A stretch of 63,999 nt of DNA, filler included, from Octopus bimaculoides (lineage: Eukaryota): NCBI RefSeq assembly GCF_001194135.2. It is 5 parts of 5 records of this genome, joined end to end, with 100 filler letters (N's around TTAATTAATTAA, not from the genome) between each part and the next. Parts side by side here need not be neighbours in the genome. Positions count along the whole stretch, not along the records: positions 1 to 19,394 come from NC_068983.1; positions 19,495 to 27,233 come from NC_069004.1; positions 27,334 to 48,305 come from NC_068981.1; positions 48,406 to 62,742 come from NC_068996.1; 1 more part is not named here. One strand, written 5' to 3'. Each line of letters starts with the position of its first letter. Position 1 is the first letter of the stretch. A program made the position numbers and the translations under genes. This document shows positions 6,327 to 54,796 of the stretch, piece by piece. Below the pieces are notes generated by a model. That model saw only the letters and a list, made by a program, of their open reading frames with translations, did not search any database and had not been told where the DNA came from.

Positions 6327-6361
6327 GTTTCTGAAGAAGAGCTTTGCTCGAAGCGTTAAAC
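6327..6361 (+). ncRNA. Minimal type I hammerhead motif with A15.1>G change
   Basis: gttt-CTGAAGA-a-gagc(ttt)gctc-GAAG-cg-tt-aaac: 4-bp helix I, 4-bp helix II, helix III would be ACGU if the GAAA box were intact. Confidence 0.6.
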
Positions 6362-6882
6362 CACCTTTCTTTCCTTCCTTGAGCGTCTGCTAATACTTCA
6401 CATGTACCACGTCCTTGCGTTGTTGTTTTTTTTGTGTGTTTGTTCTTCGTTTTTTTTAAAAATTATATATACACATGCAGTTACATACACATTCTCACAA
6501 AGACTCATACAGATATGAGCACACGTACCTGTGCTTGAGTTTGTGTGAGTGTGTGTGCGTGCGCGAAAAGGATAAAAATAACGCATGCTAACAAAACTAA
6601 CAGACAGTTTACTGAGAAATGTCACCATGTAAGTTCTACCGTGGAACGCATAAATGTGAAAAAAACAAAACAAAACAAAAATGCAGTACTCTACCGGATG
6701 TAAATTATAAGACCAATCGGAAACTTACTACAATCCATCACGTGCCACTGAAGATAAGAAATATAAAAAGGAAAAATAAAAACCTGTTAGCATTGGAAAC
6801 TTTTCTTCGTTGATATACAATCTGATGAATGCTAATACAGGAAGAAACTTGCAGTAATAGAAACGTAGTCAACTTCATAGAC

Positions 6883-6991
6883 TACTACTACTACTACTAC
6901 TACTACTACTACTACTACTACTACTACTACTACTGCTGCTGCTGCTGCTGCTGCTGCTGCTCTTGCTACTGCTGCTTCTGCTGCTGCAGCT
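6883..6991. repeat. Compound (TAC)n(TGC)n microsatellite
   Basis: Direct reading. Confidence 0.95.
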
Positions 6992-8569
6992 ATCTCTTCA
7001 CAGAATATGCGTGTGTGTGTATGTAGTATCATGTATTTGAAAAGATAGTTTTCAATAGAAAATCGTTTCGAGTCGAGTCGGAAACATGAAAAAAGAAGAA
7101 AAAAATGAAAAAAGAAAATGAAAAAGAAAGAGAAAGAAATGTTTGCAATAAAATACTCACTGCCTTCAGTTAATAAACTATATACCTTTCTTTCTTTTTC
7201 TTTATCCGAATTTCTAATCATAGAAACGAATAAACATTATACATTTAAAATACATAAATAGTCTTTCATGTTTTACATAACAATTGAACGTTATTATATA
7301 AACTGTGCAATGGAAGAGTAGAAAAAAATAATAGAATATGTATATTGCTTTTAAAAGCTTAGTATGTGTGGTTACTGTTAGAAGAAATAATATATATATA
7401 TTTTTTGAATAGTTTCAAATGCTGACAAAAATATCAGGAATGGAAGAAATGTCAAACAGACAATAGCTAGGAGAGGAAGCAGATACAGAAATAGACTTTG
7501 GATTTATATAGATATTGAATGAAGCTATACAAAATTATGTTCATTCTGTGTTTAACCAAAGTTGTAGAGAGTACAACACCCAAACATCGACTGTTGACGT
7601 TACACGAGGGACATAGCATTTACTGTTAAGTAATAATACAACAGAGGTCTTTATATCCCAGAAGGTGACTTATTTAACAGCGGGTGTGACTAACTGACTG
7701 ACTGATAGATAGGCTGAATATTTGTGTTTGTCATACCCAGTCAAGTAACATAACATTGACGTTAAGCTAATGACAGATGTATAGACGTGAAAATAAATAC
7801 AAATAGATAGAGGTTGATAGATTAAACAGAAAAAAAAAAAACATGAGAAAACCGAAAGAAAGTGGAAAGTGTGTGCAGAGAGAGTTTGTGAAGGAGAAGA
7901 GAAAAAGAAAGAGCAAGAAAGAGAGAGAGAGAGAGAGAGAGAGAGAGAGAGAGAGAGAGAGAGAGAGAGAGAGAGAGAAAACGGGTGAATAAAGTAACGA
8001 TGAGAGAAGGATAAAACCAATGAGTGAGGGAAAGAAAGTTAAAAAAAGAGTTGGTTAGCGAGATTAAAGTGCTGCTAAGAGAGACTGGAAGAAAATTCAA
8101 GTAAGCAACGTACGTGTTCTTTTAATTTAATTTAATGAAGAATTAATTTAATAAAAATAAATCATTAACAGCTGGTGATACATATACACAAACATCTGTA
8201 CATGAATACACACAGACATACATGTATCTGGAAGATGACTAAACAGTGAGTATGGCCATTTACTTGTTAATGAGCTGTACAGCAAAGAAGGCATTTTAGT
8301 TAGCATTATGTAGCTTTAACCACAACTGATGCAGAAATGTCTCTTCTCAGTTAAATGCAATGCAGAATCATGACGTTTGGCTTTGTGTACAGACATGTCA
8401 TTTCAGTTCAACAATAGAAATACATCGTTTATATCTATATGTATGTATGTATGTATGTATGTATGTATGTATGTATGTATGTATGTATGTATGCATGTAT
8501 GTATGTATGTATGTATGTATGTATGTGTGCATGTATGTATGTATATATGTATGTATGTATGTATGTATG

Positions 8570-8745
8570 TGTTAAGTCTCAAACTACTGCTATCTAGCAC
8601 CTTCGGATGATCTCTACTCAACCGCTACACGACTGCTACTCGACTGCTACTCAACTGTTACTCAACACTCCTATCATGGCCAGACTACCTCTATTTATAT
8701 GTCTTGGGAGATCCTACTTCTTCGCCTGGGGGCGTGGACACAACA
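8570..8745 (-). mobile_element. Solo LTR (176 bp) inserted in (TATG)n
   Basis: TG...CA termini, TATA-like catataaataga on minus strand, gtatg on both flanks (8565-8569, 8746-8750); second copy at about 10200-10357. Confidence 0.7.
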
Positions 8746-51310: not shown

Positions 51311-53744
51311 TAACATTCAGACTGACAGAGTAATAGAAGCTAGAAGGGCTAATTTAGTAATAGCAGATAAAGATTACCAAATGAGTCCCCGCTTCATGGA
51401 GCTTACACATCTTATTCAATGTGTGCGATGACCGTTTTTAATACTGCAGCAAATTTTAAAATGTGATCGAAGTGAATAAAAAATTATATGAATATATATA
51501 AGGATATTATTGTTTATAATAATATCAGTGGGCTGGGTCATTAAGATACGCTGAGGAGATACTAAGTGATATTTTCACAAAGTTCGAAATCACTGTGCTA
51601 TGGGTGTATGACTTTTCAATGTTCGATTTTTTTGTCATTGGTACGGGGTCTTAGTGATTAGTCTTTATGTAAAAGTGAAAAGTTGTGGTTTTGAGTCGTT
51701 TTGCCTGCTATTTTAGCATGCAGGTACTACCTGTAGTACCCTTCATTATTATTATTATTATTATTATTATTATTATTATTATTATTATTATTATTATTAT
51801 TATTATTATTATCATTATTATCATTATTATATACATACATACATACATACAGAGAGAGAAGGTAAGATGAATATATCGATAGATAGATATAGATATACAT
51901 ACAGATATGTATACAGATGTATATAGATATATATACATATGCNNNNNNNNNNNNNNNNNNNNNNNNNNNNNNNNNNNNNNNNNNNNNNNNNNNNNNNNNN
52001 NNNNNNNNNNNNNNNNNNNNNNNNNNNNNNNNNNNNNNNNNNNNNNNNNNNNNNNNNNNNNNNNNNNNNNNNNNNNNNNNNNNNNNNNNNNNNNNNNNNN
52101 NNNNNNNNNNNNNNNNNNNNNNNNNNNNNNNNNNNNNNNNNNNNNNNNNNNNNNNNNNNNNNNNNNNNNNNACACACACACACACACACACACACACACA
52201 CACACACACACACACACACACAAACACACACACACGATTCTGCAAGCATATATGAGCCCTCTGTTAATTTTTAAAAAATACGCACCTGGGCAAATTTACT
52301 TAAGGAAAGTCGCAGCAATATCAAGTTTGCTAAGAGAAAATGTCGGTGGTGTTACAATTAAAGAGTCGTTCGTCATCAGATGACTTAAAGTAGAACTAAC
52401 AATGGCCGTGAGCTGCGTGACATTAATTGATTGACTTGAACTGAGCGTTTAGAATTCGGCCTGTGTGTTGTGCGGCTTTCTTTTGTGCCAACTATTGTCG
52501 TATCCAGTTTCCCTATTTGTATACAATACAGGGGTAGGTGTTTTGTGGTCGGAATACTAAGTAACATTTCACTTACTTATTTAGCAGTTTGATTTGCTGT
52601 GCTATTTTCGCCCATAGAGGCATGCATATTATATATATATATATATATAATACATAATATATATGTTTGTGTATACATATATATGTGCATATGCATGTAT
52701 CTATATATACATATATATTTATATACATATACATATATAAATGTATATACACATATATAGATATAGATAGGTGGATAAATGAATGTATTATTTATATACA
52801 TAAACAGAAATATATATATATATTTATATACACGTGTGTGTGTGTGTGAATATATATATATATATATATATNNNNNNNNNNGAGAGAGAGAGAGAGAGAG
52901 AGAGAGAGAGAGTGGCAGACACTCAGACAGACAAATAGAGAGGGAGGGAGAAAGAGAGAAAGAGAACGAGAGGGATAAAGAGAGAAAGAGAACGAGAGGG
53001 AGAAAGAGAGAAAGAGAACGAGAGGGAGAAAGAGAGAAAGAGAGAAAGAGAACGAGAGTGAGAGAGAGAAAGAAAGAGATACGTACATATATACATACAT
53101 ACCCGAACGCAGAAGTATGTATATTTATGTATGCATATACATAGGTTTGATGTGTGTGTATGTGTGTACGTACGTATGCATGTATGTACGTATGTATGTA
53201 TGTATGTATGTATGCATGTATGTGACATGGGTAGTATCTTTTGAATTGCGAGTACAATCCACCCGACAAGCTTCTATACAGTTTCCTTCCACTCGATTTC
53301 TCTCACAAGATATGGGCTACCTATCAGGTGTAGAAAAATTTGTGAAAGATATCAAAACGTGGCACACACACACACACACACACACACACACACACACACA
53401 CACACACACACACACACACANNNNNNNNNNNNNNNNNNNNNNNNNNNNNNNNNNNNNNNNNNNNNNNNNNNNNNNNNNNNNNNNNNNNNNNNNNNNNNNN
53501 NNNNNNNNNNNNNNNNNNNNNNNNNNNNNNNNNNNNNNNNNNNNNNNNNNNNNNNNNNNNNNNNNNNNNNNNNNNNNNNNNNNNNNNNNNNNNNNNNNNN
53601 NNNNNNNNNNNNNNNNNNNNNNNNNNNNNNNNNNNNNNNNNNNNNNNNNNNNNNNNNNNNNNNNNNNNNNNNNNNNNNNNNNNNNNNNNNNNATATATAT
53701 ATATATATATATATATATATATATAAATTGTATGTATATATATA

Positions 53745-54110
53745 TGTATAGTATGAATCTTGCTTCTCAACCACTTGGTTCCGGGATCAATCTCACTGCG
53801 TAACACCTTGTGCAAGTGTCTTCTACTATAGCCTGGGGCCGACTTAAGCCTTGTGAGTGGATTTGGTTGACAAAACACTGATAGAGACCCGTCATGTGTG
53901 TGTGTTTGTGTGTGTCTTTTTGTCTCAACCGATGTCTATGTGTTTACGTCCTCATGACTTAGCGATTCGGCAATAGAGACAGATGGGAATAAGCTCTAGG
54001 CTTACAAAGGATGAGTCCTGGGGTTGATTTCTTCGACTAAAACCCGTTACGGCGGTGCTCCAGCATTGCCGCTGCCAAATGATTGAGACATGTAGAAGAA
54101 TAAAAGAATA
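53745..54110 (+). mobile_element. SINE family B, degenerate
   Basis: gcaagtgtcttctactatagcc, gtttacgtcctc, ggtgctccagcat. Confidence 0.85.
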
Positions 54111-54377
54111 TACATATATACAAATTGTCTTCATAAAATTTGACGTGTGTACAGTTCTACCGATTACATTGGGGTTATTTTGAAATGTCTAAATTCCGGA
54201 AAAAGTTCTGCAGAAGATAATTCACTGCAGTATATGCTGCCGGCAAGAGAACGTAATTATTTAAATCTATATTTATATACTGAGCGTGATAAATTGAATA
54301 TTAATTTCAATTTAAAACCAGTTGTCCAGCATATAAAAAATCTGATAATTCAGAAAAATTGTATTACATGCGTATAA

Positions 54378-54796
54378 GAAGGGATGACCACTAGGTGGTC
54401 ATCCAATATGCTAGAAAGAGGTCATCAACGACCCAACCACAAAGACAAATAATGTTTTCCAGAAAAAAAATTCAGCAACCACCAAGCATAGGCAGGCAAG
54501 ACAAAATGAAAAATATACAAAATAAAGAATTGTGTACCGGTTTCACCATCAACTTTTTTACTTACGTAAAAACGTCCGTGGTTCCTCAGCATAATCGTTC
54601 TAAAATCAATATAATTTGCAGAACTATAGACGAATTTTCTTCATAAAATTATTTTCTATATTTTTCATTTTGTCTTGCCCGCCTATGCTCTGGTGTTTGC
54701 TGAATTTTTTTCTGGAGAACATTATTTTTCTCTGTGGTTGGGTCGTTCATGACCACTTTCTAGCATATTGGATGTCCACTTAGTGGTCATCCCTTC
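54378..54796. mobile_element. 419-bp fold-back element with 148-bp inverted arms
   Basis: 54378-54525 vs 54649-54796 about 90% identical by eye; 123-bp spacer holds a hammerhead. Confidence 0.85.
54528..54596 (-). ncRNA. Type I hammerhead ribozyme motif with extended helix II
   Basis: Minus strand: gattatg-CTGAGGA-acca-cgg-acgtttttac(gtaa)gtaaaaaagt-tga-tggt-GAAA-ccgg-TA-cacaatt; helix III is the palindrome ACCGGU; GUA site between 54535 and 54534; one mismatch in helix I. Confidence 0.75.

Follow-up and report, generated by a model that had tools for sequence, protein, structure and literature searches.

Four hammerhead-like motifs had been predicted in a 63,999-nucleotide stretch of Octopus bimaculoides DNA, which is analysed here in full and is referred to as the window. 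Three of them were described as lying in inverted repeats, and the arrangement was proposed to represent either several families of non-autonomous elements, that is inverted counterparts of tandem retrozymes, or extreme truncations of Penelope-like elements (PLEs). This raises the question whether the head-to-head cassette is itself the mobile unit, or a trace of how a ribozyme-bearing repeat is inserted.

Results

Hammerhead-like motifs and inverted repeats in the window

Hammerhead-like motifs are present in the window above chance. A descriptor of the type-I minimal hammerhead returned one motif with a perfect core and three with at most one core mismatch, while 100 local dinucleotide shuffles gave means of 0.02 and 0.29, respectively, and a single shuffle (1/100) reached three motifs at the latter threshold. 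The four units, here M1, C2, C3 and C4, are mutually unrelated as originally predicted (local alignment scores 16-27), and no further copies of any of them were found elsewhere in the window. Of the four named motifs, M4 (54589) alone has both stems, helix I and helix II, together with the intact core CUGANGA / GAAA / UH; M1 (A15.1G), M2 (two or more changes) and M3 (U4C) all have altered cores. Likewise, the tiny self-complementary helix III that had been ascribed to all four is palindromic in three (ACCAUUGGU, ACUCAGAGU and ACCGGU), but the motif at 6331 reads GAA-GCGU rather than ACGU. Hammerhead models had been suggested as a check and agree in part: the descriptor finds M4 with a perfect core, but no hammerhead is among the Rfam matches listed (150 of 358 at E<=10). 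The matches listed are low-scoring, and nearly all are microRNA models on microsatellites. No match was obtained when viral, metagenome and prokaryote genome contigs were scanned for the motifs, which is what a repeat of animal origin would predict.

Three of the four units lie in inverted repeats, as predicted, at 25807-26018, 28429-28578 and 54365-54809; the longest "inverted repeats" returned by the window search were N runs and were dropped. The repeats are real, but the elements are larger than had been described, because each of the three cassettes exceeds its inverted repeat by a one-sided extension. The 3' ends face outward in all three, and all six cassette ends have TA/CA-rich flanks, although the window itself is microsatellite-rich, so that the chance level matters. 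The predicted layout, in which a ribozyme with its tail faces away from an inverted copy of the tail, is recovered, except that C2 has no usable core. The cassettes also appear to be free of coding DNA, as proposed: tblastn with 136 PLE proteins, all from one PLE clade, gave no match at C2, C3 or C4, its sole match in the window being at 4620-5775, and no attached open reading frame (ORF) with reverse transcriptase (RT) and GIY-YIG domains, a trait of autonomous PLEs, was found for them in this search. None of the cassette arms could be paired with an autonomous element.

Could the motifs have arisen by chance in AT-rich DNA, or the palindromes during assembly or amplification? When two mismatches are allowed, the descriptor matches number 7 against a shuffle mean of 3.7; in addition, the window holds 25 N runs, C3 sits 37 nt from a gap, and none of the contig pieces listed spans the junction of C4 at 54650. 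However, the excess of one-mismatch motifs over shuffles, the 9-15% divergence between the arms of two cassettes, and the occurrence of the C4 family and similar junctions in DNA runs of two separate studies make this explanation highly improbable.

Anatomy of the cassettes

C4 extends from 54115 to 54809 and consists of a left copy on the minus strand (54115-54650) and an inverted right copy on the plus strand (54649-54809). The left copy comprises one non-coding unit of ~510 nt and, beyond it, 26 nt that make its two ends a direct repeat (54115-54140 and 54625-54650; 23/26 identical, and 17/18 over the inner 18 nt). The right copy is 5'-truncated and matches the left arm in 147 of 162 columns; its start lies some 10 nt downstream from the predicted cut, and it therefore lacks the ribozyme. 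A tail of about 100 nt (54268-54364, minus strand) separates two sites at which 3' ends of the family preferentially fall, one near 54365-54379 and the other near 54268. Both are visible in reads as loose ends and depth steps, and both run into TA-rich sequence in other copies. The 3' end of the left copy itself (54115) coincides with neither.

M4 is a type-I minimal hammerhead on the minus strand (54528-54596) with the intact core CUGAGGA ... GAA-ACCGGU-A, a long helix II and a predicted cut between 54535 and 54534. Its helix III has a self-duplex energy of -8.3 kcal/mol; in the folding prediction, the intramolecular pairing probability of helix III is 0.00-0.01 across the motifs, and M4 is predicted to need a second copy for folding. 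At 54592, the helix I mispair of the window copy is a G-C pair in 73-75% of the DNA depth; in the RNA columns in which it is fixed, every read (13 and 5) has this pair. As regards covariation of the helices, among the variant rows listed (40 of 182), 54555 keeps its pair as U-G and 54545 is mixed.

In C3, the left copy (28357-28496, minus strand) starts inside the catalytic core and includes the 72-nt one-sided extension (28357-28428), which ends at (TA)n. The right copy (28497-28578, plus strand) starts 4 nt before helix I, terminates at (TA)n and carries M3 (28501-28546, plus strand) with an 8-bp helix I, the U4C core and the palindrome ACUCAGAGU, for which the self-duplex energy is -7.4 kcal/mol. 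Judged by the identity of its arms (67/68), C3 is young. In the folded C3 hairpin, all three hammerhead helices have a pairing probability of 0.00, and M3 (28509) is thus predicted to be trapped in its own hairpin.

C2 is the most decayed cassette. Its left copy (25807-25902, minus strand) has a hammerhead whose core is altered at two positions and whose helix I is mispaired at its base, and ends at a CA/TA microsatellite. The right copy (25917-26076, plus strand) retains helix III and the 3' part of the motif, has no recognisable core, and carries the one-sided extension of about 58 nt (26019-26076) that terminates at (TA)n. The 5' halves of the two arms fail to align, and the descriptor gives no match at C2 even with two mismatches allowed.

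The fourth unit, M1 (6226-6465, approximate ends, plus strand), has TA-rich flanks on both sides and no inverted copy. In its motif (6327-6362, plus strand), A15.1 is G and the helix III palindrome is therefore broken; the self-duplex is weak (-2.7 kcal/mol). ACGU is present solely at 6860, a site without helix I or helix II, and a motif at 6822 was discarded as a hammerhead because it lacks both helices. Head-to-head with M1 and 450 nt away lies a decayed PLE RT remnant (4620-5775, minus strand) with many stops and frameshifts, in which no endonuclease part was found. A HMMER search of representatives recognises the remnant as RT; Pfam does so in no frame, and a protein search with a 93-aa query from it gave 0 of 19 candidates. 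Given the 450-nt distance and the intervening (TA)n, the remnant and M1 may be separate insertions.

The C4 family in genomic and RNA reads

Reads from outside the window were compared for the C4 family, with M1, C2 and C3 seen in the window. Reads mapped to the cassette identify C4 as a high-copy family. Its left-arm-to-right-arm joints at other loci differ in 11 of the 11 cases listed, often with filler bases, and nine of these, from the main joint table, are each on one contig per run. The listing behind this count covers 15 of 44 joints and, of 4994 pieces, 16; the remainder might hold a recurrent junction. It is made up of joints unlike the window's own, among which copies sharing the window junction would not appear. 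The count takes 54181>54772 as the same junction as 54181>54757 and repeated rows once, and it omits three joints labelled "goes back", two of ambiguous orientation labelled "opposite strands" and one internal 74-nt deletion. Because the listed junctions all differ, the C4 cassette does not appear to travel as a unit.

These data bear directly on a bolder version of the original proposal, in which each cassette would be a palindromic, non-autonomous element, mobile as a fixed fold-back unit and a source of self-cleaving double-stranded RNA. The head-to-head layout is present in three of the four window units and at other C4 loci, C3 is young, and RNA reads on the C4 family come from both strands. 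Nevertheless, apart from the variation in junctions, only 1 of the 11 joints reaches a hammerhead, the cassette ends are asymmetric, and 72-83% of the C4 RNA reads run on into unlike sequence, with no pile-up of read ends in two cDNA runs (depth only about 3-16 over M4). For the C4 family, this idea is already contradicted; overall, we regard it as very unlikely, and a recurring inverted cassette is not supported. Self-cleaving double-stranded RNA, which had been expected under either original reading, is likewise disfavoured by the core defects in three of the four motifs, the trapped helices of C3 and the predicted requirement of M4 for a second copy.

The same reads indicate that the C4 sequence closes into a head-to-tail unit of ~510 nt. 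Five listed joints lead from 54632-54649 back to 54123-54153 with a period of about 495-510; one of them is present in both DNA runs and in one RNA read (54632>54123), for which a genomic tandem is an equally good explanation. The second unit joint, near 54268, is crossed by three diverged contigs. The window's left copy equals one unit plus 26 nt. The doubled unit has a longest stop-free stretch of 83 aa; we found no ORF in it and no tblastn match with the one-clade protein set. Among the contigs listed, no array holds two complete hammerheads.

Alternatively, all four units could be plain 5'-truncated ends of autonomous PLEs, with the 510-nt loop representing a few partial tandems rather than a non-autonomous family. 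Their anatomy is that of the PLE truncations in PMC8557442, few sequences cross the head-to-tail joints (1-2 contigs in each run and 1 RNA read), one 1152-nt contig carries about 1 kb of sequence upstream of 54649, and the PLE remnant faces M1. However, both joints of the C4 unit recur in diverged contigs, the unit lacks an ORF and a match in the one-clade protein set, and the depth summed over 54245-54267 is 1100-1700 in X1, compared to 11-25 for listed single contigs. On this evidence, plain truncation is unlikely. Unique breakpoints together with constant attachment to PLE coding DNA had been named in advance as pointing to ordinary truncation; for C4, the listed breakpoints all differ, but the attachment is not constant as far as this can be tested.

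Discussion

Based on these data, we consider it likely that the four units are short insertions, that they belong to several repeat families which carry ribozymes but are unrelated to each other, and that they were probably copied into TA-rich DNA by PLE proteins. Because junctions vary between loci in the C4 family, the head-to-head layout probably arises anew as a side effect whenever a copy inserts. The proposed link to PLEs holds, in that the insertion anatomy matches that of published PLEs. The proposal of non-autonomous families is supported by C4 with its 510-nt unit; M1, C2 and C3 may be either non-autonomous or plain truncations of a full-length PLE.

In vitro, PLE proteins nick the two DNA strands with a preference for AT-rich sequence, and they initiate at two internal sites (PMC11167929). 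In the insertion model, a PLE protein would nick both strands of an AT-rich target, and reverse transcription would begin at two internal RNA sites, so that just one side receives a tail. Synthesis of both cDNAs would then terminate prematurely, at positions that vary, and their 5' ends would be linked by end joining. The hammerhead would act as a dimer in head-to-tail multimers and not within the inverted cassette. A more specific version, which we consider rather unlikely, is that C4 is a cephalopod retrozyme copied from a 510-nt circular RNA, the window copy then representing a complete turn of the circle plus 26 nt, with each head-to-head pair recording a single event in which priming from both nicked strands used two RNA templates. 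The unaligned 5' halves of C2 hint at this, as do several copies whose start lies no more than 10 nt from helix I. If this version is true, thousands of junctions would map an unsolved step in PLE integration.

Comparison with known systems

The head-to-head layout is not new: opposite-strand pairs of minimal hammerheads 100-700 bp apart have been reported in Schistosoma as probable truncated PLEs (PMC4209133). The motifs described here resemble minimal PLE hammerheads (PMC4209133) in being type I, with a palindromic helix III, a short helix I and a predicted dimer requirement; they differ in that the full core is found in M4 alone, M2 being decayed and M3 and M1 carrying U4C and A15.1G. According to PMC3088659, U4C and mutants at 15.1/16.1 are less active in vitro. 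Our findings leave the understanding of hammerheads or PLEs unchanged.

PLE insertions, as presented in PMC8557442, have an inverted 5'-truncated copy, a tail of 30-40 nt that is often at one end only, and a microsatellite bias. The cassettes share with the insertions of endonuclease-positive (EN+) PLEs an inverted 5'-truncated copy whose junction is at the 5' end (3/3 for the layout; junction variation from the C4 family), a one-sided extension (3/3, with C4 family members tending to end at either of two 3' sites), a microsatellite target and a minimal hammerhead. By contrast, they have no ORF, their extensions are longer (58-100 nt), and the C4 family closes after about 510 nt.

This closure links C4 to the metazoan non-LTR retrozymes (PMC7229834; bioRxiv 10.64898/2026.07.22.740005), with which it shares a non-coding head-to-tail unit with one type-I hammerhead (found for the C4 family only), low GC, dispersed monomers, PLEs in the same genome and a length within the range of 51-972 bp reported for animal retrozyme consensus sequences (bioRxiv 10.64898/2026.07.22.740005). 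Thus, C4 fits a non-LTR retrozyme-type, non-autonomous derivative of PLEs, and is probably an undescribed, abundant hammerhead repeat family of ~510 nt in octopus; neither source names a cephalopod. The window copy differs from these retrozymes, as far as its sequence tells, in its inverted truncated partner, one-sided tail and TA-rich target; the word "inverted" is absent from the main text of PMC7229834 and occurs in the bioRxiv paper solely in a reference title. In these sources, the mobilisation of retrozymes by PLEs is argued from shared motifs, co-occurrence and pLTR similarity (PMC7229834; bioRxiv 10.64898/2026.07.22.740005). C4 places the marks of PLE integration, namely the inverted copy, the tail and the TA target, on a retrozyme-type unit, and this insertion anatomy supports the proposal that PLE proteins mobilise retrozymes.

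Results

The window, an AT-rich, microsatellite-rich stretch of animal DNA with 25 N runs, was searched with a descriptor for type-I minimal hammerheads scored by core mismatches, with 100 local dinucleotide shuffles as the control. One motif has a perfect core (54589, minus strand; shuffle mean 0.02), three have at most one mismatch (6331, 28509 and 54589; shuffle mean 0.29, with 1 of 100 shuffles reaching three), and seven have at most two, against a shuffle mean of 3.7. Three of the four hammerhead-like motifs in the original prediction were recovered, while the pair at 25.8 kb, both arms of which retain GAA, the palindrome and the helix I 3' strand, does not satisfy this descriptor. 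As predicted, the four units are mutually unrelated in pairwise sequence comparison. The predicted ACGU helix III at 6 kb was incorrect: the motif at 6331 (6327-6362) has G at 15.1 and therefore GCGU, and the ACGU possibly stems from 6822-6867 (plus strand), where perfect core letters (CUGAUGA ... GAAACGU, then a (CTA)n run) stand without helices I and II. The motif at 28509 (28501-28546) has U4C in the core and an 8-bp helix I. According to the available text of PMC3088659, U4C reduces in vitro activity yet permits viroid infectivity, and wild type is at least 10-fold more active than 15.1/16.1 mutants. A fifth, decayed motif (45390-45440, plus strand), with helices I and II of 7 and 5 bp and a palindromic helix III, lies in a 170-nt stretch bounded by microsatellites and, with two core mismatches, is within chance levels.

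A decayed reverse transcriptase of a Penelope-like element (PLE), absent from the original prediction, lies at 4620-5775 (minus strand). Translated through stops, 4603-5931 (minus strand) matches 11 proteins at E<=0.001, the top one annotated as an Octopus bimaculoides protein, which makes an octopus the probable source of the window; among seven matched proteins scanned for domains, four have GIY-YIG and four RVT_1. The long ones carry a cysteine pair ahead of the endonuclease, as given for Neptune and Nematis, candidate clades here, in the text available of PMC8557442. In a tblastn search with 136 such PLE proteins, the window was matched at about 4620-5775 and nowhere else, and the endonuclease part of the remnant was not found. 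The motif at 6331 is oriented away from the remnant, and a (TA)n run separates them. Other repeats include a mariner-like remnant at 33492-34686 (44-nt terminal inverted repeats, 89%, around a weak Transposase_1 match, E 0.002); a probable second one at 16607-17086 with no Pfam match but a YSPDLAP motif; a 185-aa open stretch at 50525-51082 (minus strand; weak zf-RVT match, E 0.001), likely a non-LTR retrotransposon remnant; and two or three abundant families of short interspersed repeats with 70-90% identity, some in inverted pairs (e.g. 925-1161, 3755-3979, 10522-10917, 30433-30821, 53745-54112 and 59338-60685).

In the three inverted-repeat cassettes C2 (25807-26018), C3 (28429-28578) and C4 (54365-54809), the 3' ends point outward, the flanks are TA/CA-rich and one arm is longer, by about 58 nt, 72 nt and about 250 nt, respectively. 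Arm identity is 67/68 in C3, 147/162 in C4 and 44/52 in the 3' part of C2. The 3' halves of the C2 arms are 85% identical, unlike the 5' halves, which match in 19/42 columns, no better than shuffles (282/1000 score equally well). Such a pattern would be expected from two different templates or two events and hints at one or the other. Several copies start just ahead of helix I: the right arm of C3 by 4 nt, each arm of C2 by <10 nt, and one C4-family joint at 54598; the unit with the motif at 6331 and the C4 left copy (54115-54650, minus strand) do not. The latter adjoins a short repeat at 53745-54112, a member of an abundant interspersed family.

The C4 family was surveyed at 80% likeness in two DNA contig sets (X1, from which the window possibly derives, and X2) and in about 6% of two raw RNA runs. 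The survey shows that C4 is a high-copy family: 30/30 bins were covered in both DNA runs, and summed depth in X1, which is no copy number, ranged from 215 to 143,000 (11-25 for the single contigs listed). Among 44 joints, i.e. breakpoints within other copies, 15 are listed, nine of which run from left arm to right arm; table 5c gives two more. All 11 of these listed joints differ, the nine from the main table occur on one contig per run each, six of the 11 include filler letters, and just one reaches a hammerhead. Thus, the predicted head-to-head layout recurs at other loci, while none of the junctions listed does; the layout, not the cassette, is what recurs. In other copies (two contigs in X1, one in X2), 74 nt (54532-54605) are skipped and the whole hammerhead is lost. 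Loose ends run into TA-rich sequence at 54379/54794 and 54268; these positions mark the two preferred 3' ends of the family, separated by about 100 nt. A 10-bp stem-loop (54382-54404) immediately precedes the first of them and is the deepest-covered part of the family, close to several junctions.

In folding predictions for the whole C3 transcript, the three hammerhead helices are each assigned a probability of 0.00, and the C3 150-nt hairpin has -107.7 kcal/mol. The C4 motif (54528-54596) is located in the loop of its cassette; as a monomer it is predicted to form helix II (0.99) and neither the core-proximal helix I pairs (0.00-0.02) nor helix III (0.00), and its palindrome with a second copy gives -8.3 kcal/mol. 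The helix I mispair of the window's copy is repaired in the family majority. The two RNA runs gave 196 and 145 C4 reads, about equally from both strands, of which 83% and 72% continue into unlike sequence, consistent with read-through of embedded fragments. Read ends did not pile up in this portion of the runs, a result too weak to exclude cleavage. One loose end, at 54432, is common to 23 and 26 RNA reads (agreement 1.0) and suggests one expressed locus holding a short copy.

Discussion

It is plausible that read-through of C3 or C4 yields putative double-stranded RNA. Minimal hammerheads reportedly cleave poorly, as dimers or protein-assisted (available text of PMC11167929 and PMC4209133), and 8/9 Xenopus dimers did not cleave (bioRxiv 10.64898/2026.07.22.740005, in part).

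Part of the C4 evidence fits a 510-nt unit of the non-LTR retrozyme type (PMC7229834; bioRxiv 10.64898/2026.07.22.740005), described in the available portions of the latter as dispersed monomers of 51-972 bp related to pLTRs, a range that includes the C4 unit of about 510 nt. A 26-nt stretch at the start of the left copy returns at its end (23/26 identical); joint 54632>54123 occurs in other copies (two contigs in X1, one in X2 and one read in RNA run X23), four joints are similar (54638>54130, 54640>54150, 54645>54153 and 54649>54153), and three diverged contigs traverse the other joint of the unit, near 54268. When the unit is doubled, no frame stays open for >83 aa. Against this reading, the head-to-tail joints are at low depth, one additional joint goes back 418, and two hammerheads on one contig are absent among the C4 contigs listed. 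The left copy ends at one unit plus 26 nt; this single case may reflect either a template that was circular or a truncation that came later, through the neighboring repeat at 53745-54112.

As a mechanism for the cassettes, we suggest that the PLE protein of an autonomous element would nick both strands of TA-rich DNA and copy uncleaved RNA, starting at two internal sites, and that the two truncated cDNAs would become linked through their 5' ends. Two observations hint at more than this: the unlike 5' halves of the C2 arms and the copies that start close to helix I.

No paper on an octopus hammerhead or retrozyme family was found by title or abstract start, while repeat databases and supplements may hold these families; the word "octopus" is missing from the main text, as available, of PMC7229834 and bioRxiv 10.64898/2026.07.22.740005.

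In the available text of PMC8557442, and again of PMC8969392, PLE insertions have, joined to their 5' end, a 5'-truncated copy in inverted orientation, as well as a tail of 30-40 bp, often at one end only, and their targets are biased to microsatellites. C2, C3 and C4 are like the insertions of PMC8557442 in layout, one-sided run-on and TA/CA-rich flanks. Pairs of minimal hammerheads on opposite strands, 100-700 bp apart, have been described as probably truncated PLEs (PMC4209133, in part). The two preferred 3' ends of the C4 family, about 100 nt apart, correspond to the PLE tail signature that PMC11167929, in the portion available, links to reverse transcription starting at two internal sites.
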